DNA from: Candidatus Actinomarina sp.
Lineage (GTDB): Bacteria; Actinomycetota; Acidimicrobiia; Actinomarinales; Actinomarinaceae
Length of the DNA: 64,000 nucleotides
NCBI GenBank assembly: GCA_038147085.1
Contig: JAYQSV010000001.1
Location: 67,447-131,446 of the forward strand
Direction of reading: 5' to 3'
In this document: positions 14,909 through 27,741 of the stretch, in pieces
Layout of the letters: the number at the start of each line of letters is the position of its first letter
How positions within the stretch are numbered: the first letter of the stretch is position 1
The notes under the pieces: model-generated
Databases searched by the model: none
Told to the model about the DNA's origin: nothing
The model's input: only the letters and a program-made list of their open reading frames with translations
Program-made: the position numbers and the translations under genes

Positions 14909-17410
14909 GTGTACGCTAAAAAATATATATTATTTATTTTCCTTTTATTAATTTTTTCCTCCTGTGGTTCAAATGGTTCTTCAAATGAAGAGGTGTCATC
15001 TATAGAATATAACGATGATGAAGACGAAAACGATAACTTCGATGATGAAGACGAAAATGATAACTTCGATGATGAAGACGAAAATGATAACTTCGATGAT
15101 GAAGACGAAAACGATAACTTCGATGATGAAGACGAAAACCAAGAATTTTGTGACGACTGTTTAGTTAGTGATGGTTCTAATTGGCTTAATCTTATGCAAA
15201 ATTACGGTAACTATACACCACCTGCTTATCCGAAATTTCAATCACCACCCATCTCAAATACAGTTTGGAATCAAGTAAACGGACCTTACGCTTCTGTAAT
15301 TGTTGATGTGGAAAAAACTAATGGAGGCTTTTGGGCTGGTACAGATGGTGATACACTATCGTACAGTCAAATTTATTTTGTTGACAGTAAAGATTTAACC
15401 TGGTCAATTAAATATTATATTAGAAATCCATTAGTGGATATTGCTGTTGACCCAAATAACTCAAACCATGTTGCTTTTGCTGTTGGAGCTGGTTGGGACG
15501 ATCCTTCAACAATTTATTTGTCAACTGATAGCGGAAGCAGTTGGAATAATGTAACACCAGAAAATATCTCAGCTTACCAAGCACTTGCATTTTCAAAAAG
15601 TAATCCTCTAAAAGTTTATGCAGCAGGGTTTAACGAAGTTGATAAAGTCAGAAATTTTTATATTTATTCTTCAGAAAATTTTGGAGCAACATGGACTAAA
15701 TCAAAACCTTTACCAGAGTATGAAATGAAATCCTCAGCAGTATATGGTATTCGAGATATAGGAATTGAATTTATAGAGACGCATCAAACTAATAATAATA
15801 TTTTGTATGTTGGAACCAGCTACGGTCTTCTATACACAGAAGATGGTGGTAATACCTGGACAAACCTTCTTGAAGATTACAGTCAACAAGACGTGACAAG
15901 TATTGCAATTTCAGAATCAAATCCAAATTTGATTTACTTAAGGGTAGGGAATAACAACTCAGTAGAATGTAATGCGGTTGATGATCTCAGAGAAGAAGAA
16001 TGGGAAGATGAAGATGCTCAAGATGAAGAGGTAAAGGAAGCAATAATTACTTACTGTCCAATTGTCTTACAGTCCAATGATGGAGGTAAATCATGGGGTG
16101 ATTATGGAGATAGTTATATGCTTAGTGGTGATTCAGCTGAGGGAAATGTTTTAATTAGTTCTTATGATGATAACTATATTTATAATGTTTGGTCAAGAAT
16201 AGTAATCCAATCTAAAGATGCTGGAGAAACATGGGAAAAGTTTTTTGGTACTCCGGATTATCCGCACATTCCAGATGTAGGAATACATAAACTTTTGTCA
16301 GGTGATAGTTTAACTGAATTGTATTTAGGTGGAATAGGTGGATTTTTTAAATCAAATGACCGAGGTACAACATGGGTACCTCAAAACACAGGCGTTAGTG
16401 GAACTGACGTATTAGATATAGAGTTTGCTGCTGATGGGACGGTATTTGCTGCAACTCAAAATCATGGAGTTTGGAAAAGTTACGATAGGGGAATAAATTG
16501 GACTTATGCTTCCTTTGGTATAAAGAGTTTTTATGGAATGCAACTTCTCCCACACCCAACCAATCCAGATATAGTCTACTACACAACCTCAGGCGGATTA
16601 TATAAAACAACTGACGGTGGTAATTTGTGGAAAATCTCTGAATCTTTGTGTCCCAGTATTGAAGCTAACAGCTGGACATGCCATTATCACGGTTTAATTA
16701 TTGATCCTGAAAACCCAGAACATATTTTAATTGGAGGTGGAGGTGACGATGGAACTCCAGACGGTGTTGGAGTAAACAAATCATTTAATAGTGGTAAAGA
16801 ATGGAATGAATCAGATGAAGGTTTTGTTAGAGATATACATGTTAGTAAGATGGCTGTTGACCCAAATAACTTTAATATATTCTATGCAACCTCTCAAGGA
16901 GCTGTTACAGGGATTGAGAAATCTTCAGAAGGAGCGGGTGTTTTTAAAAGTACTGATAAGGGTGCAACTTGGAAACAAATTAATAATGGATTAAATACAT
17001 TAGAAACAAATGTAATTGTCATAGATCCTAACAACAGTAACACTCTTTATTTAGGCACTGATGATGACGGCCTTTATAAAAGCACTAACGGTGGGGAAAG
17101 TTGGCAAAAAATGTATTTCCCGAACGTGCCAAATACGTTTGGCGTTGGTGATATAGTTGTTGATCCTAAGAATAGCAATAATGTCTATGTAGGGACTTTA
17201 GACTATTTTAGATTAGCAGTAGATCCAGGAAGGGGAATTATTGGAGAATATGGTATCTTCAAAACAACTAATGCTGGTGAAACTTGGGAGGAGTTTAACG
17301 ATGGATTAATCTATCCAGGTATTTACTCACTTGTAATTGATAAAGATAACAGGACACTTTTGGCTGGCACAAGAAGAGGAGGAATATTTTGGATTAAATT
17401 AGATAATTAA
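14909..17410 (+). CDS. Large secreted lipoprotein with an acidic tandem repeat and about 12 BNR/Asp-box beta-propeller repeats (GTG start)
   Basis: Lipobox LLIFSSCGS. Carries (DDEDENDNF)x4.7. Repeated S/T-x-D-x-G-x-T/S-W motifs include STDSGSSW, TEDGGNTW, SNDGGKSW, SKDAGETW, TTDGGNLW, STDKGATW, STNGGESW and TTNAGETW. Confidence 0.7.
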   Translation: MYAKKYILFIFLLLIFSSCGSNGSSNEEVSSIEYNDDEDENDNFDDEDENDNFDDEDENDNFDDEDENDNFDDEDENQEFCDDCLVSDGSNWLNLMQNYGNYTPPAYPKFQSPPISNTVWNQVNGPYASVIVDVEKTNGGFWAGTDGDTLSYSQIYFVDSKDLTWSIKYYIRNPLVDIAVDPNNSNHVAFAVGAGWDDPSTIYLSTDSGSSWNNVTPENISAYQALAFSKSNPLKVYAAGFNEVDKVRNFYIYSSENFGATWTKSKPLPEYEMKSSAVYGIRDIGIEFIETHQTNNNILYVGTSYGLLYTEDGGNTWTNLLEDYSQQDVTSIAISESNPNLIYLRVGNNNSVECNAVDDLREEEWEDEDAQDEEVKEAIITYCPIVLQSNDGGKSWGDYGDSYMLSGDSAEGNVLISSYDDNYIYNVWSRIVIQSKDAGETWEKFFGTPDYPHIPDVGIHKLLSGDSLTELYLGGIGGFFKSNDRGTTWVPQNTGVSGTDVLDIEFAADGTVFAATQNHGVWKSYDRGINWTYASFGIKSFYGMQLLPHPTNPDIVYYTTSGGLYKTTDGGNLWKISESLCPSIEANSWTCHYHGLIIDPENPEHILIGGGGDDGTPDGVGVNKSFNSGKEWNESDEGFVRDIHVSKMAVDPNNFNIFYATSQGAVTGIEKSSEGAGVFKSTDKGATWKQINNGLNTLETNVIVIDPNNSNTLYLGTDDDGLYKSTNGGESWQKMYFPNVPNTFGVGDIVVDPKNSNNVYVGTLDYFRLAVDPGRGIIGEYGIFKTTNAGETWEEFNDGLIYPGIYSLVIDKDNRTLLAGTRRGGIFWIKLDN
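15014..15139 (+). repeat. 27-bp in-frame tandem repeat, 4.7 copies
   Basis: GATGATGAAGACGAAAAYGATAACTTC at 15014, 15041, 15068 and 15095, plus a partial copy at 15122. The only variable site is a synonymous C/T. Confidence 0.95.
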
Positions 17411-18690
17411 ATAAAAATTGTAAATTTAGCTCCACCAAAACTTGATTCACTTACCTCTATTTTCCAACCTAGTTTTTCTATAGCAGCTTTCACAATACTT
17501 AAACCAAGACCACTTCCTCCATGACCTCTAGTCCTTGATTCATCTTCTTGAAAAAAGGGATTAAATATTAAATCGTAATTTTCTAGTAAGATACCATCCC
17601 CGTCATCTTCAACAATTATTGTTTTGACACCCTCAACAACACAAGTTTGAATTTGGGCTTTTGTATCTTTAAATTTGATTGAATTACTTATTAAGTTGTT
17701 GAGAATAATCTTTAGAAGTCCTAAGTTTGTATCAATTTCAAGTTTGTCTGTGTTAACAAATTCTATATCATATCCTCTATCAATAATTAGATCTGATATT
17801 ACATTCGTTAAATTAAGTGGTTCTACAGGGTAATCAGTTTTTTTGATTTCACTAAGTAAAAGTAGAGACTCTAAGGTTTCTTCAATTTCACTAACATCAT
17901 CTTTTATACCTTTTACAAGATTTTGATCAATATTCTCTGCATTTGCGAGTTTTTCCAGCTGTAAATTTAAACTTGTTAGAGGAGTTTTTAATTCATGTGA
18001 AGCATTTTCAACAAATTGCTTTTGGCTTTTAGAACTTAAATGAGTTTTTTCTAACAAACCATTAAAAGTTTTTATCAATTTACCCACTTCATCGTTAGAT
18101 CCAAGTTCTTTTAACTTATCTAAGTTTTTTAACGGCTCAAGTTTAGAAACTTTAGATATAGTTTCTTTAACCGGTCTAAATGCAATAGTTGTAGCGAGCA
18201 ATACACCAATGACAACTAAAAATCCTATAAAAAGATAAATCCTAAAAAAATCTCTCTGGAAGGGATCAATAAATTCTCTTGGAGCAGAGTTGTTGTAAGC
18301 AACAACTACAGTAACTTTTCCATCTGCACTTGTAGTTTTTTTGTATGTAAATTCTTTTAGTTCAGCAAGCCCTTTAATATTTTGAAGATCATGCATTCTT
18401 CCAAACCTTGGTGGAAAATAACTTCCTTCTCTAATTAATTGTCCTGAAGCATTGTCATACAAAAGAACAAAATAATTATTTATTCTTGGCATATCATCAC
18501 GTTCTAAGCTTGTATAATCTTCAGCTAGTTCTTCAAGGAGTTCGTTGCTGTCAAAATTTAGAGTTTGAGAGTATCTAGACTCTGCAAGATTTTGTAAAAT
18601 TCCTGGAATAAAAAATATTCCAATAAATAGAGTTACTAATGTAATTATGAGTATTTTTGTTCTAATACCTAATTTCTTCATTAATTCCAC
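17407..18690 (-). CDS. Two-component sensor histidine kinase
   Basis: 427 aa with two TM segments flanking an extracytoplasmic domain. H-box ASHELKTPLTSL, and an HATPase region with DDGDGI and GGSGLGLSIV. Confidence 0.85.
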   Translation of the reverse strand: MELMKKLGIRTKILIITLVTLFIGIFFIPGILQNLAESRYSQTLNFDSNELLEELAEDYTSLERDDMPRINNYFVLLYDNASGQLIREGSYFPPRFGRMHDLQNIKGLAELKEFTYKKTTSADGKVTVVVAYNNSAPREFIDPFQRDFFRIYLFIGFLVVIGVLLATTIAFRPVKETISKVSKLEPLKNLDKLKELGSNDEVGKLIKTFNGLLEKTHLSSKSQKQFVENASHELKTPLTSLNLQLEKLANAENIDQNLVKGIKDDVSEIEETLESLLLLSEIKKTDYPVEPLNLTNVISDLIIDRGYDIEFVNTDKLEIDTNLGLLKIILNNLISNSIKFKDTKAQIQTCVVEGVKTIIVEDDGDGILLENYDLIFNPFFQEDESRTRGHGGSGLGLSIVKAAIEKLGWKIEVSESSFGGAKFTIFI

Positions 18691-19355
18691 CTATAGCCAA
18701 AACCGCGCACAGTTTTAATTTTTTCATCAACTTTATAAGGCTTTAACTTTTTTCTAAGGTAGCCAATATAAACTTCAACATTATTAAGTTCTTCCTCTTT
18801 AGGATATAAGTTATCCCAGACTTCCTCTAGTAATTCTTGTTTGGAAATTACCGTTCCAGTATTTTCAATAAGGTTTGCAAGAAGATCAAATTCTCTTTCC
18901 GATAAGTCTATTTCTGTATCTTTAAAAGTTACACTTCTTGCTTCTATATCTATTTTTAAATCCTCATCTATTAAAACACTTCCTTTATTTTTATTTCTTC
19001 TTAAAAGTGCTCTTACTCTTGCTTTTAACTCAACTGAAGAAAAAGGCTTTTTTAAATAATCATCAGCCCCAGTATCTAAGCCTTCTTCAAGGTCATACTC
19101 ACCACTTTTTGCAGTCAACATTAATATTGGTGTTTGATTTCCTACAGATCGTAACTTTGAACATACTTTAAACCCATTCATTTTTGGCAGCATGATATCT
19201 AGTAATATTAAATTGTATGGTTCTTCTAATGCTTTAAAGAAACCAGATTCCCCATCAAACTCTTGGTCGACAACATAATTTTCTTCTTCAAGCAGTTCTT
19301 TTACAAGACCAGAAATTTTCTCATCATCTTCTATCAGCAAGATTTTTTTCGCCAT
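18681..19355 (-). CDS. OmpR-family response regulator
   Basis: 224 aa. The receiver domain has ILLIEDDE and LDIMLPKMNG. The C-terminal winged helix ends in IKTVRGFGYRW. Confidence 0.9.
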   Translation of the reverse strand: MAKKILLIEDDEKISGLVKELLEEENYVVDQEFDGESGFFKALEEPYNLILLDIMLPKMNGFKVCSKLRSVGNQTPILMLTAKSGEYDLEEGLDTGADDYLKKPFSSVELKARVRALLRRNKNKGSVLIDEDLKIDIEARSVTFKDTEIDLSEREFDLLANLIENTGTVISKQELLEEVWDNLYPKEEELNNVEVYIGYLRKKLKPYKVDEKIKTVRGFGYRWN

Positions 19356-19398
19356 AGATTAATGATGACAATTTAAAAATTTAATGCAAGGTTGAATT

Positions 19399-19683
19399 AT
19401 GCAGCTTCTCAGAAAGCTCTCAGCATTGTTAGTGTACATTGACAGTATGAAAAACTTAATACTACAAAACACAGAAACACTTTTCCACAGGGCTGGTAGA
19501 GGTGGCATGATGGGTCCTAAAGGAATGATGGGAGAGGGATCTGAAATGTTCATGGGAGGCATGATTGTTGCTGCCATTATTGCAACACTCGTTATAGTCT
19601 TGTTAGTTCTTGGAATAGTTAAATTAACTCAATCAATAAGGTCTTCTAGAAAGACTAAAAGCACTATAGAGGAAGAGGAATAA
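19399..19683 (+). CDS. Small Met/Gly-rich single-pass membrane protein (start uncertain; alternative ATG at 19447)
   Basis: GRGGMMGPKGMMGEGSEMFMGGM followed by one TM helix and a charged tail. Divergent from the TCS, and its stop overlaps the next gene start (TAATG). Confidence 0.5.
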   Translation: MQLLRKLSALLVYIDSMKNLILQNTETLFHRAGRGGMMGPKGMMGEGSEMFMGGMIVAAIIATLVIVLLVLGIVKLTQSIRSSRKTKSTIEEEE

Positions 19684-20351
19684 TGAAAAAATCACTATTA
19701 ATTGGATTAGCAGTGTTAGTTTTAGCAGCAATCACTGGTGGTGTAGTTTATGCAAGTGAACTAGATCAAATTGCAGACAACGTTGAGTCCAATCTTGAAT
19801 CCAGCTTTGATAGCGTAGAATCTACATTTGATAATATTGAATCAAAGTTTGATGATGATAACGATAATGATGATTATGAGCACGAAGCAATGCATGAAGC
19901 TAAATCAACAATTCTTGAAGATGGACAAATTACTCAAGAAGAAATTGATGCTTTAGAAGATTCAAACTTTAAAACACACCTACAAGAAGAATTTGTAACA
20001 GAATTAGAAGACGGTGTTGTTACAGCTGAAGAACTTCAAGCTCATAAAGAAGCTGAAAAGGCAGAACACCAAGCAATGCATGAAGCTAAATCAACAATTC
20101 TTGAAGATGGACAAATTACTCAAGAAGAAATTGATGCTTTAGAAGATTCAAACTTTAAAACACACCTACAAGAAGAATTTGTAACAGAATTAGAAGACGG
20201 TGTTGTTACAGCTGAAGAACTTCAAGCTCATAGAGTTGCAAAACATGATGAAAATGGTGAAGGTCACAAAAGCCACGGTTTTGGTAAAAAGGGACGTGGT
20301 CACAATAAAGGCAGTCACTCACATAACGAATTAGACGGAGATGATCTTTAA
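19683..20351 (+). CDS. Secreted acidic protein with a duplicated 54-aa module and a His-rich C-terminus
   Basis: Signal/TM LLIGLAVLVLAAITGGVVYA. Two identical modules AMHEAKSTILEDGQITQEEIDALEDSNFKTHLQEEFVTELEDGVVTAEELQAH. The tail is HDENGEGHKSHGFGKKGRGHNKGSHSH. Confidence 0.6.
   Translation: MKKSLLIGLAVLVLAAITGGVVYASELDQIADNVESNLESSFDSVESTFDNIESKFDDDNDNDDYEHEAMHEAKSTILEDGQITQEEIDALEDSNFKTHLQEEFVTELEDGVVTAEELQAHKEAEKAEHQAMHEAKSTILEDGQITQEEIDALEDSNFKTHLQEEFVTELEDGVVTAEELQAHRVAKHDENGEGHKSHGFGKKGRGHNKGSHSHNELDGDDL
19885..20232 (+). repeat. Perfect 162-bp direct duplication (19885-20046 and 20071-20232), period 186 bp
   Basis: The two copies were compared base by base and are identical. Both are in frame within the 19683..20351 CDS. 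Confidence 0.95.
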
Positions 20352-20356
20352 ACCCC

Positions 20357-21016
20357 TTGATCAAAACTCCATTAATAACAGGGCCTTCTATGATGAAGGC
20401 CCTTGTATTATCATACTTAAAGAAAGTTGATGTGAAATTCAATAACTATACAAACGTTTTTTTTATTACAGTTCTTTTGTTTTCAGCCTGTTCGTCTAGT
20501 GAATCACAGGGAGTTGTAACATTACAAAACCAAGAAACTACAACTGAAAGCACTGTTTTAGAAGATATTTCTCCAGAAGATGCACAGTTAATTATTGCTG
20601 AATGTTTACGTGAAAAAGGTTATGACATCCAAGACCCTTCAAGAGAAGAAGGATTTAGACAGCAAATGGGTCCTGAAAACGAAGGTGATAGACAACAAAT
20701 GTTTGAAGAAATTAGAGCATGCGCAGAAGAAAATAATTTACCACTTTTTTCTGAGACTCAATTTGAAGATCCAGCTGTTGTAGCAGCAAGGTTAGATGAT
20801 GAGCTCAAAATGGCGCAATGCTTAAGAGAAAATGGTTACGAAGTTCAAGATCCCAATACAGAAACGGGATTGAGAGAAATTATAAGATCACTTTCTCAAA
20901 CAGCAAATGTAGATATGCAAGAAGTAAGAACTACAGTTGAGAATTGCTTTGACGAACTAGGTTTAGAAAGACCTGAAGGACCGGGTGGTGGGCCAGGAAT
21001 GGGTCCAAGAGGTTAA
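20357..21016 (+). CDS. Lipoprotein with a duplicated C-x-R-E-x-G-x-D/E-x-x-D-P Cys motif (true start probably downstream, around 20390)
   Basis: Lipobox LLFSACSS. Carries AECLREKGYDIQDP...IRACAEEN and AQCLRENGYEVQDP...VENCFDEL. The tail is Gly/Pro-rich. Confidence 0.6.
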   Translation: MIKTPLITGPSMMKALVLSYLKKVDVKFNNYTNVFFITVLLFSACSSSESQGVVTLQNQETTTESTVLEDISPEDAQLIIAECLREKGYDIQDPSREEGFRQQMGPENEGDRQQMFEEIRACAEENNLPLFSETQFEDPAVVAARLDDELKMAQCLRENGYEVQDPNTETGLREIIRSLSQTANVDMQEVRTTVENCFDELGLERPEGPGGGPGMGPRG

Positions 21017-21055
21017 TTTTGATAACTTTTATAATTAAATTTGTAAATTGGGATT

Positions 21056-22627
21056 ATGCTTAATAAAAAATTTCTAACAATAATTATTTTGATAGCTGTA
21101 GCTACTTATGGTGGCTACTATTTTGGTTTTCAAAACTCTACCTCATCAAAAACAAGCAAGACACTTGAGCTAACAACTGTAGCAATTAAGAGAGGAGATT
21201 TAGAAACAAAAGAAGATTATAACGGAACGTTAAGAAAGACAGATAAATCTATACTCAAATCTACAATTTCTGGAGTTGTTACTTATTTACCAAATGAAGG
21301 CAGTGTTATAACATTTGGAGGAGTTTTGTATTCAGTCGATAACAAACCAGTTATTTTGTTACAAGGAAGCACACCTTTTTATAGAACATTAGACCTTACT
21401 TCAGATTCTGGTCCTGATGTTTTACAACTTGAAGAGGCTCTAGTTTATTTAGGTTATGCAAGTCCAGACTTCACTCCTGACAGTAATTTTGATGAAGCAA
21501 CATCCTCAATGTTAAATGCACTTTATAAAGACTATGGAATTGATACAAAATCTGAAATAACTTCAGAAGAGCAAGTAGAAATTAATAAAAAGAAAGACGC
21601 AGTTACTACTATTGAAGACACCATATCAGCAGGCGGTACAAGTTTATTAGAAGTTAACGACAAAAAGAAGAAATTAGATGACACAATTGAAAGCGCTCAA
21701 GATGAAAATGCAGCTTGGCAAGCAGCAACAAAGTTAATTGATGAATATTTAAACCAAATTACAATTTTAAAAGATTTAACAAATCCAAAAACAATTCAAA
21801 AATCCGAAGAAACTCGAAAAGATGAAATTAAAAGCTACGAAGACAAAATTGAAGAACAGAAAAGATTACGCGAACTAGAAGAAGGCAAAGGTTCGGTCAT
21901 AGATGCTAGTGAGGCTTTAGCAATTGATTTAGCTCAAAAAGCGTATGATGATGCCGTTAAAGAATATAACGAAGGTATCGATAAGTCAGCAGAGTTAGAA
22001 CAAGCAAAAAAAGAACTTAATGACTTAGAACTTGCTGCAAAATCAGAAACATTTAGTCCTACTAATGCATTTGCATCTGAAACAGCAATAATTGTTGGCT
22101 CTCACATTAGCGATAAAGGTTCTGTTACAAGCAATAATGCACAACTTTATAACATTTCTACAACAGGATTAGAAGTTGTTTTTAGTATTGAAGCTGCTGA
22201 TCAAGATATAGTTAATATTGGAGATTCTGTTGAAGTAGAATTGCCTAACGGAGATACAATCCTCACAACAATATCATTTATAGACCAAGTAGTTACACAG
22301 TCTCAATCTGGAGATTTTGTAGAAGTAATTTTAGCTATAAGCAATCCAGATGAATTAAATATTTTTGACGAAGCACCTGTCGACGTATTTATTACAACAG
22401 AGGTGTCAAAAGACATTCTATATGTTCCTGTAAATGCTTTACTTGCACTAGCTGAAGGTGGCTATGCGTTAGAAATTTACGAAGGAAATAATGGGGATGA
22501 TTTATCTTCTATCAAATCTGGTCAGGATACAACTTACGTCGGTGTTGAAATAGGTGTATTTACAGATGGATATGTTGAAGTAAAAGGAAACATTTCAGAA
22601 GGCCAATTAGTAATTGTTCCAAGATGA
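21056..22627 (+). CDS. Membrane-anchored efflux adaptor (HlyD/MacA-like) with a peptidoglycan-binding domain
   Basis: 523 aa with an N-terminal TM helix. PG_binding_1-like GPDVLQLEEALVYLGYASPDF...ATSSMLNALYKDYGI, a long coiled-coil, and a C-terminal beta-barrel region. Its stop overlaps the ABC ATPase start. Confidence 0.7.
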   Translation: MLNKKFLTIIILIAVATYGGYYFGFQNSTSSKTSKTLELTTVAIKRGDLETKEDYNGTLRKTDKSILKSTISGVVTYLPNEGSVITFGGVLYSVDNKPVILLQGSTPFYRTLDLTSDSGPDVLQLEEALVYLGYASPDFTPDSNFDEATSSMLNALYKDYGIDTKSEITSEEQVEINKKKDAVTTIEDTISAGGTSLLEVNDKKKKLDDTIESAQDENAAWQAATKLIDEYLNQITILKDLTNPKTIQKSEETRKDEIKSYEDKIEEQKRLRELEEGKGSVIDASEALAIDLAQKAYDDAVKEYNEGIDKSAELEQAKKELNDLELAAKSETFSPTNAFASETAIIVGSHISDKGSVTSNNAQLYNISTTGLEVVFSIEAADQDIVNIGDSVEVELPNGDTILTTISFIDQVVTQSQSGDFVEVILAISNPDELNIFDEAPVDVFITTEVSKDILYVPVNALLALAEGGYALEIYEGNNGDDLSSIKSGQDTTYVGVEIGVFTDGYVEVKGNISEGQLVIVPR

Positions 22628-23313
22628 GTTCAAATATTAACTCTGTAATTTCTTTAAAAAACATTAGTAAGACTTATGACGGACCACCACCAGTAAAAGC
22701 TTTAGATGATATTTCAATTGATATTAATGAAGGTGAATTTGTTTCTATTGTTGGTCAATCAGGAAGCGGTAAATCAACATTATTAAACATGATTGGTTTA
22801 TTAGATAATGCCTCAGAGGGAACTATTGAAATAGAAGGTAAAAATATTTCTGATTTTTCTGATGACGAATTATCAAAGTTTAGGGGTGAAAAAATTGGAT
22901 TTATTTTTCAAAGCTTTTTTCTTTTACCAGGTTTAACTGCTCAAGAAAATGTTGCAGAAGGGTTACTTTATCAAGGAGTAAAACGTGAAGAAAGATTAAA
23001 AAAGGCAAAAGAAGCATTAGAACAAGTAGGTTTAGGACATAGACTTACTCATTTACCGAAAGAGTTATCAGGTGGTGAGCAGCAGAGAGTTGCGATAGCT
23101 AGAGCATTAGTTGAAGACCCAGCTTTTGTATTAGCAGATGAACCAACTGGAAATCTTGATAAAGAATCTGGATTAAAAATACTTAATATATTGAAAGAGC
23201 TCAATGATATTGGAAAAACAGTAATAATGATTACCCATAATCAAGAGCATGCAAAAATGTTCAAAAAGAAAATAGAACTTGTAGATGGAAAAATCGCTAA
23301 ATATGAAAGTTAA
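22624..23313 (+). CDS. ABC transporter ATP-binding protein (MacB/LolD-type)
   Basis: Walker A GQSGSGKST, signature LSGGEQQRVAIARAL, Walker B VLADEPTGNLD. Confidence 0.9.
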   Translation: MSSNINSVISLKNISKTYDGPPPVKALDDISIDINEGEFVSIVGQSGSGKSTLLNMIGLLDNASEGTIEIEGKNISDFSDDELSKFRGEKIGFIFQSFFLLPGLTAQENVAEGLLYQGVKREERLKKAKEALEQVGLGHRLTHLPKELSGGEQQRVAIARALVEDPAFVLADEPTGNLDKESGLKILNILKELNDIGKTVIMITHNQEHAKMFKKKIELVDGKIAKYES

Positions 23314-24487
23314 TAAATTAAAAACTAGAGATTTATTTTTTGTAGCTTTGTATGGAGTTAAAGCAAGAAGAGGTAGGGCTGCGATGACATCTATAGGAAT
23401 TGGAATAGGAATAGCTGCTATTGTTGCTGTTACGGGTATATCCTCTTCAGGGAAAGCTGATTTATTAGCAACTCTTGAATCATTCGGAACTAATTTAATT
23501 AAAGCTTCACCACAAGCTGGTTTTTTTGGTAGTCAGGAAAGCTTACCAGATGGCGTTGTTGGAATGGTTGAGAGAATAGGTCCTGTTGAAGAGGTTACCT
23601 CAACTTCTAGAGCAAACTTGCTTGTAAGACGAACAAATTTCATTTCGGAATATGAAGGTGGTGGAATCTCTACTGTTGTAACTAGTACCGAACTTCTTGA
23701 TGTAATTGGTGGGAACCTTTCAGAAGGTAGGTTTATTGAAGGAGATTTATCAGATGTACCTGTAACAGTTTTAGGTTCAGTTTCTGCTGAAAGACTTGGT
23801 ATTAACTCAATATATCCACCAGTAAAAATATTGATTGATGACCAGTGGTTTGGAGTAATAGGGATTCTAGAAGAACTAACTATTCATCCTGATTTAGACA
23901 GGTCTGTTTTTATCGGATACGGTGTTGCAAAAACATTGTTTGATATTGATTCTGAACCAACTACCTTGTATCTCAGAGCTAATCCTGATTATGTTGAAGA
24001 TGTTGTAGATGTTTTAGCACCTTCAATGAACCCTGAAAATCCAGATCAAGTTGAAGTTAGTAGACCATCGGACGCATTAGAAGCCCAGCAAGCAGCTGAA
24101 GCAGCTTTTACTAATTTATTATTAGGACTTGGTTCAGTAGCTCTATTAGTTGGAGGAGTTGCCATTGCTAATGTTATGGTTATGTCAGTACTTGAAAGAA
24201 GGATGGAAATTGGCGTTAGGCGTTCACTTGGGGCAACAAGAAAAGAAATCAGATCTCAGTTTTTGCTAGAAAGTACAATTTTATCTGGTCTTGGTGGAAT
24301 AGTTGGAGTTTTGCTTGGGGTTGGTATCACTTTCGGGTATACGAATTACACTAATATTGTGTTTTCTATCCCATTTTGGCAAATATTTGGTGCAGTTGTT
24401 TTAGCTTTAGTTATTGGTGCAATTTCAGGAATGTATCCAGCTATAAAAGCCTCGAAAATACAACCTGCTGAGGCTGTGAGAACATGA
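23285..24487 (+). CDS. ABC transporter permease, FtsX/MacB-type (alternative ATG at 23303)
   Basis: 400 aa with an N-terminal TM helix, a large extracytoplasmic domain and three C-terminal TM helices. Contains the FtsX-family motif region ERRMEIGVRRSLGATRKEI. Confidence 0.85.
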   Translation: MEKSLNMKVNKLKTRDLFFVALYGVKARRGRAAMTSIGIGIGIAAIVAVTGISSSGKADLLATLESFGTNLIKASPQAGFFGSQESLPDGVVGMVERIGPVEEVTSTSRANLLVRRTNFISEYEGGGISTVVTSTELLDVIGGNLSEGRFIEGDLSDVPVTVLGSVSAERLGINSIYPPVKILIDDQWFGVIGILEELTIHPDLDRSVFIGYGVAKTLFDIDSEPTTLYLRANPDYVEDVVDVLAPSMNPENPDQVEVSRPSDALEAQQAAEAAFTNLLLGLGSVALLVGGVAIANVMVMSVLERRMEIGVRRSLGATRKEIRSQFLLESTILSGLGGIVGVLLGVGITFGYTNYTNIVFSIPFWQIFGAVVLALVIGAISGMYPAIKASKIQPAEAVRT

Positions 24488-25011
24488 GGTATACATTATG
24501 TATTTTGTTAATAAGTGCTTGCACTATAGGTGGTGAAGAAACACAAGCTGTTGCAACTTTAGATACCTCACCACAAAATGAAATATTAGCCGAAGAAGTT
24601 AGTTTTGAAGAAGGCGTTTTATCTTTTGCACAGTGCATGAGAGAAGAAGGGATTGATTTTCCAGACCCAACATTTGATGCTGATGGAAATCCAAACTTTC
24701 AAGAATTTGACTTAGCATCTGAGAATCAAGAAAAATTTGAAGCAGCCTTTACAAATTGCGAAGACATTTTAAGAAATGCATTGCCAGATGAGTTTGATTT
24801 AGATCCTGAAGTAGAAGCAGCGCTTATAGATGCTTCATTAGAATTTTCACAATGCATGCGAGATCAGGGAATTGATTTTCCAGATCCAGTTCCAGGAGAG
24901 TTTGGTTTTTTTGCATTTAGAGATGCAAACGTCGATTTTAACTCTCAAGAAGTTCAAGATGCATTTGAAATCTGTCAACCTGACAACCCGCTTGAAAATT
25001 TAGACGACTAA
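24484..25011 (+). CDS. Lipoprotein, paralog of 20357..21016 (duplicated Cys motif)
   Basis: Lipobox LLISACT. Carries AQCMREEGIDFPDP...FTNCEDIL and SQCMRDQGIDFPDP...FEICQPDN. Its start overlaps the permease stop (ATGA). Confidence 0.6.
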   Translation: MRYTLCILLISACTIGGEETQAVATLDTSPQNEILAEEVSFEEGVLSFAQCMREEGIDFPDPTFDADGNPNFQEFDLASENQEKFEAAFTNCEDILRNALPDEFDLDPEVEAALIDASLEFSQCMRDQGIDFPDPVPGEFGFFAFRDANVDFNSQEVQDAFEICQPDNPLENLDD

Positions 25012-25873: not shown

Positions 25874-26374
25874 ATGGATAAAGAAACTCTTTCCAAATTA
25901 GATGAAAAATCATTATTTGAGTTACAAAATACTATTTCTGAAGTTATAAAAGCTAAAAATCTGGAAAATGGTGATATTGAAACAATAATTGATGAAGCTT
26001 TTAATATAGCTTTTCCAAAATTTGATGGTGTCGGACTTAATCCATGGTTAGAAGGTTCTTTACTTATTTGTCCTGGAGCTAGAATCGATAAATCGCAAGT
26101 TAAACATAATTGTAAATTTGTAGTTGTTGGTGATGACTGGTCTTGGGAATCATCAAATATGATAAGCGATGTAATTAGAAGAGATCAATCATCAAAAAAA
26201 TTTAAACAGCACTCTATTACATTAATCTCTCCTTATGAGGGTATGAAAATAGAAGTAATTTCACAAAAATCTCAAAACGGTAAACATCTAGTAGAAAATA
26301 TTGAATCGTATATTTTTTCCAACGGCAAATTAGAGAAAACTATGACTAAATCGTCACGATCAAGAGATCATTAA
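25874..26374 (+). CDS. Hypothetical protein
   Basis: 166-aa ORF with an ATG start and no antisense competitor. I do not recognise a family. Confidence 0.5.
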   Translation: MDKETLSKLDEKSLFELQNTISEVIKAKNLENGDIETIIDEAFNIAFPKFDGVGLNPWLEGSLLICPGARIDKSQVKHNCKFVVVGDDWSWESSNMISDVIRRDQSSKKFKQHSITLISPYEGMKIEVISQKSQNGKHLVENIESYIFSNGKLEKTMTKSSRSRDH

Positions 26375-27741
26375 ATAAGAATTAAAGCAATAGTCAAAAA
26401 TCCAGCAAAACCAGCAATATCGGTAATTAATGTTAAGAATATATTTGATGCTAATGCTGGATCTAATCCAAGTTTTCTAAGTAGTAAAGGTATTGATGAA
26501 CCAAAAAGGTTTCCGATTAAAATATTTGCAAAAATTGAAATACTAAGTGCTGCAGCATAGTTTGATAAGCCAATAATACTTAAAACTAAAAATGACATTG
26601 TTCCAATTAAGAGACCGTTGAACATACCAATAGTTGACTGTTTTCTAATGACATCAAAAACCCTTGCTTCAGATACATCATTTCTAGCTAGAGCTCTAAT
26701 AACTATTGCTAAAGATTGCGAACCAGAGTTACCTCCAACTAAAGCTACTATAGGCATCAATGCAGCAAGTCTTGCATCGTTTGCAATAGTTGATTCAAAT
26801 TGAGAAATTAAAAATGAAACAATAAATGCAAGGCCCATATTTATAGCAATCCAAGGAACTCTTAACTTTATTGATTTTTGTACCGGAGTAAAGATTGTTT
26901 CTTCAGCACCAGCACCAAAAGATTGAGAAAAGTCTTCTGCAATTTCATGTTGTAAAACATCTAAAGCAGAACTAATTGTTGCCTGTCCAATTAACTTATT
27001 TTCTTCGTCGACAACTGGCAATGCTAAGAGTTCATATTGTTTAATTAAAGACGCGGCCACTTCTTGATCATCAGTTGGTTTAATTGATATTGGGTTTGTT
27101 ATCATTACTTTTTCAACCAATTCATTATCTTGTGCAAACACCATTTCTCTAAAAGAAACAACACCTTCCAAAATATTTTCAGAATTGATAATGTAAACAT
27201 AAAAAAAGTTTTCAATATTTTTATGGAGTTCCTTAAGTTCTTTCAAAGCTTTTTTTACAGATAGTCCAGTTTTAATAGTTGGAACTTCTTCTGACATAAG
27301 TCTCCCAACAGAATCTTTTGGCCAAGATAATCTTTTATTTATATCTTTTTGTGTTTCTTTATCTAATAGACTGAGTAATTCTTCTGCTTCATCATGAGTA
27401 CTTTTTTCAAACACATAAACTACATCTTCAACAACCATTTCTTTAAAAAGTGATTCGACATGGTCTGACTCTAAAATTTTTGATATTTCAATAATTGCTC
27501 TTGGTCTTAAATATTCAAATACACCAACTGCATGTTGTTTTTTAAGGTTTTTCAACAATTCACCAGCTTCCTCTGGTTCAAACTCTTCTAATACGTCTGC
27601 ACAGTCAAAAGGATCTTCAATTGCTAATTTGTTCCAAGTTTTTGTATTATCTAATAAAAACTGAAAAGCAATTTCGGGTTCAGTCCTAGAAAGCTCACGG
27701 AGTTCCTTACCTGTTATAGTGTTGATATTTAACTCGTCCAT
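26371..27741 (-). CDS. mgtE: Magnesium transporter MgtE
   Basis: 456 aa with an N-terminal MgtE_N domain, tandem CBS domains and a C-terminal 5-TM domain containing GNSGSQS and DIAGFAGFL-type motifs. Confidence 0.9.
   Translation of the reverse strand: MDELNINTITGKELRELSRTEPEIAFQFLLDNTKTWNKLAIEDPFDCADVLEEFEPEEAGELLKNLKKQHAVGVFEYLRPRAIIEISKILESDHVESLFKEMVVEDVVYVFEKSTHDEAEELLSLLDKETQKDINKRLSWPKDSVGRLMSEEVPTIKTGLSVKKALKELKELHKNIENFFYVYIINSENILEGVVSFREMVFAQDNELVEKVMITNPISIKPTDDQEVAASLIKQYELLALPVVDEENKLIGQATISSALDVLQHEIAEDFSQSFGAGAEETIFTPVQKSIKLRVPWIAINMGLAFIVSFLISQFESTIANDARLAALMPIVALVGGNSGSQSLAIVIRALARNDVSEARVFDVIRKQSTIGMFNGLLIGTMSFLVLSIIGLSNYAAALSISIFANILIGNLFGSSIPLLLRKLGLDPALASNIFLTLITDIAGFAGFLTIALILI

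Follow-up and report, generated by a model that had tools for sequence, protein, structure and literature searches.

To our knowledge, adaptor-bearing MacB pumps in cells without an outer membrane are poorly understood, and only two Firmicute systems have been studied. The closest described relatives of the locus presented here are Spr0693-0694-0695 of Streptococcus pneumoniae (PDB 5XU0/5XU1; PMC5768738) and YknWXYZ of Bacillus (PMC5985334), each of which combines an adaptor with a separate ATPase and a MacB/FtsX permease of four transmembrane (TM) helices in a cell that has no outer membrane. Precedents for individual traits of the locus are found in these Gram-positive MacAB-like pumps, in the MacB relatives BceAB and HrtAB, which are coupled to a two-component system (TCS), and in the small-protein modulators YknW and AcrZ (PMC5985334, PMC5768738, PMC11237747). 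The MacB motor works by mechanotransmission (PMC5985334), and export through the adaptor channel has been proposed for Spr0693-0695 and YknXYZ (PMC5768738, PMC5985334). The HssRS-HrtBA (heme) and BceRS-BceAB (peptide antibiotics) systems place an OmpR-type TCS beside a type VII ATP-binding cassette (ABC) transporter, which the TCS induces, and share with the present locus a logic of envelope detoxification (PMC11237747, PMC9271180, PMC5985334). Here, we analyze a 64,000-nucleotide stretch of the Candidatus Actinomarina sp. contig JAYQSV010000001.1 (hereafter, the window), in which positions 17407 to 25011 hold a TCS divergent from a seven-gene pump operon. The components of this locus, their folds, their conserved gene order and a conserved, genome-unique promoter repeat are documented below. 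They probably constitute an inducible MacAB-type envelope-detoxification machine adapted to life with no outer membrane, one that is switched by the TCS, anchored to the wall and furnished with a Cys4 lipoprotein partner.

The host genome (a single contig of 1.01 Mb with ~32% GC) is that of a streamlined marine Ca. Actinomarina-type actinobacterium, unlike the genomes of typical high-GC actinobacteria. The nine open reading frames (ORFs) of the original prediction, which had been made from the letters alone, were all found again in the window with the same strands and coordinates. The stop/start overlaps that it described for the plus-strand block are present at four of the six junctions, the other two being gaps of 5 and 39 nt. 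The features of the locus are as follows.

17407..18690, minus strand: sensor histidine kinase with two TM helices, a ~115-residue extracytoplasmic sensor, a HAMP-like segment, HisKA and HATPase_c
18681..19355, minus strand: OmpR/PhoB-type response regulator (REC plus winged helix), overlapping the kinase start
19407..19423, plus strand: direct repeat TCTCAG-N5-TCTCAG (period 11 bp), a candidate site for the response regulator at the pump operon
19435..19440, plus strand: TACATT, a conserved -10-like hexamer 11 nt past the repeat and 6 nt ahead of ATG 19447
19447..19683, plus strand: mini-protein, probably 78 residues (ORF from 19399), with a Met/Gly-rich N-terminal tail, one TM helix and a basic-then-acidic C terminus
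19683..20351, plus strand: acidic secreted or anchored protein of 222 residues, with a signal/anchor, two SHOCT-like units and a His-rich basic C-terminal tail
19881..20232, plus strand: 186-bp tandem duplication in the gene for the 222-residue protein (1.9 copies, 99% identical)
20357..21016, plus strand: Cys4 lipoprotein 1 (lipobox LLFSAC), upstream of the adaptor, its ancestral place
21056..22627, plus strand: membrane fusion/adaptor protein with an N-terminal TM helix, a beta half-domain, a PG_binding_1-like insert, an alpha-hairpin and C-terminal beta domains
22624..23313, plus strand: MacB/LolD/FtsE-type ABC ATPase in which the Walker A, signature and Walker B motifs are all intact
23285..24487, plus strand: MacB-type (type VII) permease, a 4-TM FtsX domain with a MacB periplasmic core domain
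24484..25011, plus strand: Cys4 lipoprotein 2, an extra, Actinomarina-specific terminal copy (lipobox LLISAC, four invariant Cys, pI 4.05)

Pump, adaptor and Cys4 lipoprotein

The domains assigned to the pump and the TCS from the letters alone are recovered by Pfam and NCBIfam: HisKA and HATPase_c in the kinase, REC and Trans_reg_C in the regulator, ABC_tran in the ATPase, and FtsX with MacB_PCD in the permease. The permease matches FtsX (E 1e-21; 77.6 bits, cutoff 25.5) and MacB_PCD (E 1.3e-15; 58.6 bits, cutoff 27) in Pfam, and its best PDB matches are MacB (5gko, 4e-26; 5lil, 3e-23) and pneumococcal Spr0695 (5xu1, 1e-21); a large extracytoplasmic core domain lies between TM1 and TM2 of this 4-TM FtsX-type protein, as in type VII permeases. 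The ATPase matches ABC_tran in Pfam (4e-37) and the MacB nucleotide-binding domain (NBD) region (1.4e-68) and LolD (3e-68) in NCBIfam, and conserves the motifs GQSGSGKST, LSGGEQQR and LADEPT of a MacB/LolD/FtsE-type NBD.

Sequence-level signals in the adaptor are weak (TIGR01730, 28 bits versus a cutoff of 94.9; HlyD_3 in 9 of 32 orthologs), and a PDB sequence search with it returned no match. In the AF2 model (pLDDT 80.9; strands 39-103, helices 170-329, strands 338-522), a beta half-domain is followed by an insert at the peptidoglycan (PG)-binding position (about residues 118-161), modeled as helices at residues 120-160, then by an alpha-hairpin of ~160 residues and, toward the C terminus, by further beta domains. 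In a Foldseek search of the PDB, this model matches MacA, AcrA, MexA, EmrA, CusB and BesA at E 1e-17 to 1e-9, with individual scores of 8e-17 for TMexC, 2e-16 for AcrA, 5e-14 for MacA 5nik_D and 6e-14 for 4dk0, consistent with the periplasmic adaptor/membrane fusion protein architecture of the HlyD/MacA/AcrA superfamily. The PG-binding domain proposed earlier falls under the Pfam cutoff in the window copy (PG_binding_1/PF01471, 19.5 versus 23 bits, E 1.2e-3) but is matched by 25 of the 32 orthologs, with a best E of 7e-23. On the basis of the Foldseek matches of the model and of PG_binding_1 in the orthologs, we take the protein, as modeled, to be a genuine efflux adaptor with a wall-binding insert. 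Its predicted MacA-type fold extends the likeness of the locus to Spr0693-0695, whereas the inserted PG_binding_1 domain and a much longer hairpin set it apart from the adaptors of Spr0693-0695 and YknWXYZ. The cassette encodes no TolC-type exit duct, a genome-wide TolC search not having been made; because the cassette has no such duct and the actinobacterium presumably lacks an outer membrane, we class the system as MacAB-like and not as MacAB-TolC.

The two lipoproteins are paralogous, as had been predicted (34% identity, E 6e-16), and belong to a large family. An exhaustive profile search retrieves 2,864 representative clusters at E <= 1e-3, 589 of them at E <= 1e-10. A 38-member alignment reveals a nearly invariant lipobox Cys and four invariant Cys in two tandem C-M-R-x-x-G-x-D-x-P-D-P...C modules, in each of which the second Cys lies ~40 residues past the C-x-R-x-x-G...D-P motif (invariant residues C51, R53, D61, C92, C124, R126, G129, D134, P135 and C164). 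Both window copies conform to this pattern and carry a bacterial lipobox with the invariant Cys; lipoprotein 1, which has two copies of a C-x-R-E-x-G-Y...DP...C module, probably starts downstream of its TTG. In the predicted structure of lipoprotein 2 (pLDDT 82.9), each module comprises a helix, a beta-hairpin and a second helix. Foldseek finds no match to this model among PDB folds (best E 2.3), a PDB sequence search with the lipoprotein profile finds nothing, and no Pfam model matches any of the 38 family members, CHCH/CX9C/COX17 appearing at chance level only. The Cys4 lipoprotein, of a putative disulfide type, represents a large unnamed family with no Pfam model or PDB structural relative. 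YknW, the extra noncanonical component of YknWXYZ, offers a parallel, although it is a Yip1-type membrane protein. A second parallel is YbjP, the recently recognized lipoprotein partner of TolC in the tripartite pumps MacAB-TolC and AcrAB-TolC (PDB 9qgy, 9tg4; PMC13082787, PMC13095208), a case which illustrates that lipoprotein pump partners can escape notice for long. YbjP differs in that it binds the outer-membrane duct that is absent from the window cassette, and it shows no fold similarity to the Cys4 lipoprotein.

To place the cassette in a wider context, we scanned one genome per species with a 10-sequence lipoprotein alignment as query, which gave 570 confirmed loci, and compared the window proteins with the best 80 of these by tblastn. 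These 80 loci span Acidimicrobiia, Thermoleophilia, Actinomycetes (Planotetraspora, Nocardioides, Asanoa, Microbispora, Dactylosporangium and Hamadaea), Chloroflexota and Dormiibacterota. The lipoprotein is present in 80/80, the adaptor in 79/80, the ABC ATPase in 77/80, the FtsX permease in 76/80, the histidine kinase in 75/80 and the response regulator in 74/80; the missing genes mostly reflect contig ends (truncated contigs). Gene order is always lipoprotein, adaptor, ABC, FtsX, with the TCS upstream and either divergent or co-directional, and same-class genomes harbor the same cassette. The synteny on which the original prediction would stand or fall is therefore kept, the lipoprotein-adaptor-pump-TCS set being retained in 74 to 79 of 80 loci in several phyla, and the cassette is conserved in Actinomycetota, Chloroflexota and Dormiibacterota. 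One Dormiibacterota metagenome-assembled genome (L065) has the complete lipoprotein-adaptor-ABC-FtsX cassette twice, as mirror images on a single contig.

Both the type of pump and its regulation by a TCS are of known kinds. Four elements are new: a fixed set of six genes that includes a wall-binding adaptor; an unnamed lipoprotein without a fold relative in the PDB; the putative regulator box; and the Actinomarina-specific TCS accessory genes. We found no description of the cassette or of these elements in the searchable literature. TCS, Cys4 lipoprotein, PG-anchored adaptor and MacB pump together make up a third and much more widespread version of the adaptor-bearing MacB pump, and the cultured carriers (Desertimonas, Nocardioides, Planotetraspora, Asanoa and Microbispora) can be used in the hunt for inducers and substrates.

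The same parts might instead transmit mechanical force to the wall or to a lipoprotein and export nothing, either like FtsEX, by driving a wall-remodeling partner through the PG-bound adaptor, or like the Lol system, by extracting or positioning the Cys4 lipoprotein. FtsEX and LolCDE are type VII ABC transporters that act on extracytoplasmic proteins or lipoproteins (PMC5985334), the adaptor has its putative PG-binding domain, and the lipoprotein is strictly co-encoded with the pump, in two to four copies in Actinomarina. We nonetheless consider this unlikely, as the cassette contains no hydrolase domain, the permease harbors a full MacB_PCD and finds its best matches in MacB and Spr0695, not in FtsX or LolC, and the adaptor is predicted to have a complete efflux-adaptor fold, whereas FtsEX and LolCDE operate without such an adaptor. 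Control by a TCS is, moreover, typical of detoxification modules.

A direct repeat in the divergent promoter

The kinase (HisKA, 7e-10; HATPase_c, 6.5e-20; H-box SHELKTP) and the regulator (Response_reg, 5.6e-27; Trans_reg_C, 1.8e-22; phospho-acceptor Asp in LLDIMLP) have the domains and phosphorylation sites of an OmpR/PhoB-type TCS, and in an NCBIfam scan the kinase reached none of the equivalog cutoffs. Such a TCS adjoins the cassette in ~93% of the sampled loci, and this near-constant pairing distinguishes the Cys4-lipoprotein cassette from Spr0693-0695 and YknWXYZ. HrtBA and BceAB differ from the cassette in lacking both adaptor and lipoprotein; in addition, BceB has 10 TM helices and the Bce kinase has no sensor domain, in contrast to the ~115-residue extracytoplasmic domain of the window kinase.

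Alignment of the divergent intergenic regions of sibling loci revealed the repeat TCTCAG-N5-TCTCAG, which is conserved there and unique in the 1.01-Mb genome, degenerate forms included (0.05 expected). Among the 41 distant loci in which the regulator and lipoprotein genes are divergent, 13 harbor an exact CTCAG-(10/11)-CTCAG in this promoter (shuffle mean 0.03), mostly in Acidimicrobiia, and 12 of these 13 repeats are oriented toward the pump operon. The architecture is that expected of an OmpR/PhoB-type binding site, and we regard the repeat as a putative regulator box. Its conservation in distant divergent promoters links the regulator to the operon. Synteny and the promoter repeat both support the proposal that a MacB-type pump forms the basis of an envelope efflux module under the control of the neighboring OmpR-type TCS. 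The repeat also provides a concrete, testable candidate site for the regulator. In the divergent promoter of Desertimonas flava (L071), and likewise in L052, L058 and L100, three to four consecutive (T)CTCAG repeats occur at a spacing of 10-11 bp.

Downstream of the repeat, GTACATT followed six bases on by ATG is conserved in the window and in two sibling loci (L016 and L108), which suggests that TACATT is the -10 element and that the transcript is leaderless from ATG 19447. The 94-residue mini-protein ORF listed earlier (19399-19683) is present, but its first 16 codons hold the conserved repeat. Because the repeat lies inside this ORF, we read these codons as promoter DNA and ATG 19447 as the likely start, which gives a probable true length of 78 residues; the public gene call on a sibling contig is 75 residues. 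Consensus promoter and terminator scans of the locus were uninformative. A second conserved block (TAATGATGACAAT...TTAATGCAAG), common to the sibling loci, lies directly upstream of the regulator gene at 19359-19390 and may be the promoter of the TCS operon or an autoregulatory site.

Small accessory proteins and the proposed circuit

The two genes that follow the repeat encode lineage-restricted proteins. The mini-protein is predicted to have an N-out/C-in topology, with eight Met in its N-terminal, presumably external, tail; only two near-identical copies were found in a collection of 5.8 billion proteins. The name of Met/Gly-rich mini-protein given to it earlier fits the window copy, but the homologs in L016 and L108 have EGMRRGDMFIEGHNRFGRRGVM ahead of the TM helix and no Met/Gly tract. 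The 222-residue protein has ~60 relatives, all of Actinomarina type, the closest of which are 160 residues long with one unit; the number of units in the family ranges from one to three. Conserved features are a signal/anchor sequence, an acidic region, units with a SHOCT-like "EDGxIT-EE" pair, EHEAMH in the second unit and a His-rich basic tail, GHxNHKGKGHKKGRGMHxHDHDD. Tail and SHOCT-like motifs are kept down to ~25% identity, and in a divergent variant of 159 residues the tail is basic and contains few His, and HxxM is lacking. The His-rich C-terminal tail was correctly predicted (14 His in total, seven in the last 40 residues, in an acidic protein of pI 4.3). The HEAMHEA and EHQAMHEA motifs are also both present but are not independent, as they are the two copies of the 186-bp tandem duplication.

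Relationships beyond this family are faint. The 222-residue protein does not match SHOCT (PF09851) at E <= 0.01, but its repeated LEDGxIT-EE motif aligns with the most distant homologs, P0179 and P0180, which carry a faint precomputed PF09851. A Pfam scan of the 222- and 94-residue proteins (E <= 0.01) gave sub-threshold unrelated families only (Mycobacteriophage_73, GA_3 and EF-hand_5), and NCBIfam gave none. None of the four accessory proteins reaches a Pfam or NCBIfam threshold. An EF-hand reading of "EDGxIT-EE" was rejected: EF-hand_5 scores 16.9 bits (cutoff 25.9), and acidic residues are missing from positions 1 and 3 of the canonical loop.

The distribution of these genes within the genus separates the locus into two parts. 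The adaptor is found in 17 of 18 genus relatives, and the lipoprotein is kept beside the pump in genus genomes without the TCS; in Actinomarina the lipoprotein has two to four paralogs per cassette, one of them the extra copy at the end, which is conserved within the genus. Of the 41 genus genomes, about seven have the pump-linked kinase and regulator, always beside this pump. The His-tail protein family is found in five of these seven and in none of the 34 others, save one marginal fragment, and the mini-protein was seen only in TCS-bearing loci and only in Actinomarina; neither small protein has a tblastn match in any of the 80 distant loci. As the lipoprotein tracks the pump and the small proteins track the TCS in this survey, the locus consists of an ancient pump-plus-lipoprotein core and a TCS sub-module under loss in a streamlined genus, the two small proteins belonging to the sub-module. 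They are probably Actinomarina-specific accessories linked to the kinase and TCS, not to the pump.

A published survey of Actinomarinales identified no TCS (PMC7771536). Some Ca. Actinomarina genomes do have one, contrary to that survey, and the pump-linked TCS is a flexible trait of these organisms, tied to the pump and to lineage-specific small envelope proteins. Response_reg is above the Pfam cutoff in 30 of the 41 genus genomes. A second regulator (in a 233-240-residue frame) with an adjacent kinase occurs in ~22 of 41, and in the host genome it lies outside the window at G000:C1:836508-836837. In L016 (G009:C3), the pump-linked regulator is apparently frameshifted and split over two frames (960-1650), and the His-rich tail of the 222-residue homolog is out of frame (2478-2563); these frameshifts reflect either decay of the TCS sub-module or assembly error. 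A single TAA in the kinase matches of G003 and G052 was rejected as a sign of pseudogenization, since it probably sits at the regulator/kinase gene overlap.

In our estimate it is very unlikely that the two small proteins are hitchhikers with no functional relation to the locus, or that their genes are rapidly evolving filler of a variable slot that separates regulator from pump. The content of the slot does vary, two TCS genomes carrying other genes there (see below), the repeat number ranges from one to three, the mini-protein is a near-orphan, and the pump is absent from the neighborhood of the most distant SHOCT-bearing homolog (P0180). Weighing more heavily with us is that the His-tail protein tracks the TCS (5/7 versus 0/34), that both genes lie directly downstream of the conserved putative regulator box and, with an overlap of 1 nt, are coupled to each other, and that the tail and SHOCT-like motifs persist to such low identity. 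In L107 (G036:C1, 9110-12256) and L109 (G033:C7), the slot from regulator to lipoproteins is taken up by three other, unrelated genes, which encode a 546-residue membrane-anchored protein on the regulator's strand, a 339-residue anchored protein and a 146-residue multi-TM protein; the last is also found in L016.

The original prediction inclined toward metal: in that scheme the small proteins would bind Cu, Ag or Zn outside the membrane, the kinase would sense the metal, and the MacB pump would export the metal or its chelates. The analysis turns against this, and we hold it to be rather improbable. The kinase scores 104 bits against the 292.55-bit cutoff of the heavy-metal subfamily TIGR01386 (CusS/CopS/SilS, cztS/silS/copS) and the regulator 180 bits against 279.2 for CusR-type TIGR01387, whereas generic families (RstB, CpxA, PhoB) score higher for both, and an alignment of the kinase sensor domain contains no conserved His, Met or Cys. 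The HxxM pair of the window is a 99%-identical duplicate and is missing, along with most of the His, from the 159-residue variant; sibling mini-proteins lack the Met/Gly tract, and neither small protein occurs in the 80 distant cassettes. The likeness to SilE/PcoE-type proteins was likewise not recovered, the scan of the 222- and 94-residue proteins giving no match to SilE/PcoE, PacL/DUF1490, ZraP/CpxP/Spy or any other metal-binding family at E <= 0.01. We know of no MacB-type pump for metal-ion transport. In favor of metal are the eight Met of the mini-protein tail, the conserved EHEAMH of the second repeat, the ability of MacB-type pumps to export siderophores (PMC5985334), and the resemblance of the conserved His-rich tail to the Zn-binding DLHDHDH motif of PacL1 (PMC9374683).

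PacL1 (Rv3269, DUF1490), the metallochaperone-like partner of the P-type ATPase CtpC (PMC9374683), is also actinobacterial and exporter-linked. Like the 222-residue protein, it has one TM helix and a region rich in repeats that is mostly helical or disordered, and it carries at its C terminus a His/Asp motif, to which MHxHDHDD corresponds in the 222-residue family consensus. It differs in that the 222-residue protein has no DUF1490 match, has its bulk predicted outside the membrane, not in the cytoplasm, stands beside a MacB pump, and in the window copy has a tail (GHNKGSHSHNELDGDDL) without an HDHDH run. By this analogy, metal binding by the conserved His-rich tail is plausible; a metal-efflux function of the cassette is not supported. 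A looser version, in which the MacB cassette has been rewired into a metal-sensing circuit, with the His-tail SHOCT-like protein and the Met-rich mini-protein as metal-binding co-sensors or buffers for the kinase (comparable to ZraP or PacL1, though of unrelated sequence) and the pump clearing metal-damaged or chelated compounds, strikes us as no less doubtful. If true, an adaptor-bearing MacB system would for the first time be linked to metal in a cell that has no outer membrane, and SHOCT-like repeats would gain an extracellular function.

A functional parallel for the two small proteins may lie in accessories of histidine kinases. MgrB/PhoQ is a small-protein parallel of this kind. In the CpxP/CpxRA and ZraP/ZraSR systems, too, whose accessory is a helical periplasmic protein, a promoter divergent to the TCS gives small secreted or membrane proteins as its first induced products; cpxP is divergent from cpxRA, and CpxP inhibits CpxA (PMC6737893). 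Zn-binding ZraP further resembles the 222-residue protein, which is helical and acidic with a His-rich region. CpxP and ZraP differ in having no sequence or Pfam relationship to the 222-residue protein, which has no LTXXQ motifs, and in that the window accessory genes are probably co-transcribed with the pump.

In the detoxification machine that we favor, an envelope signal would activate the kinase, and the phosphorylated regulator would bind TCTCAG-N5-TCTCAG, which would stand in for a -35 element and switch on the probably leaderless operon. The 78- and 222-residue proteins would be the first gene products induced and would probably act as feedback modulators of the kinase, like MgrB or CpxP/ZraP; sensitivity to metal or charge may come in through the His-rich tail. 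By mechanotransmission, the MacB motor would drive toxic amphiphiles out of the membrane/wall zone, peptides or lipophilic compounds being the likeliest, along a channel formed by the peptidoglycan-bound adaptor. The Cys4 lipoprotein would serve the pump as a dedicated partner outside the cytoplasm that captures substrate or mediates docking.

Several observations weigh against this scheme. In co-directional loci, the repeat is found in 0 of 33 cases upstream of the regulator gene and in 1 of 35 between the kinase and lipoprotein genes, so that the cis-element is shown mainly for Acidimicrobiia, and the consensus promoter scan called neither the -10 element nor the leaderless start. Two TCS genomes (G033 and G036) have unrelated genes in the slot of the mini- and His-tail proteins, whose probable feedback role is suggested by co-occurrence and gene position. 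The role of the lipoprotein, in turn, we infer from its gene neighborhood, its fold having no known relative to guide a functional assignment.

Flanking genes

On the left, the kinase gene is convergent, with a 4-nt overlap, with a gene for an 833-residue BNR/Sortilin-Vps10-type lipoprotein-like protein (14909-17410), which has a match under the cutoff to the F510_1955-family glycosylhydrolase and contains a 27-bp tandem repeat at 15013-15139 (4.7 copies, encoding DDEDENDNF). Sibling genomes do not have this gene here, and in them an acyltransferase-3 gene abuts the cassette directly. On the right, a gene for a conserved 166-residue protein of unassigned function (25874-26374) and one for an MgtE-type Mg transporter (26371-27741) follow the cassette in all sibling genomes and form a stable border of the locus.

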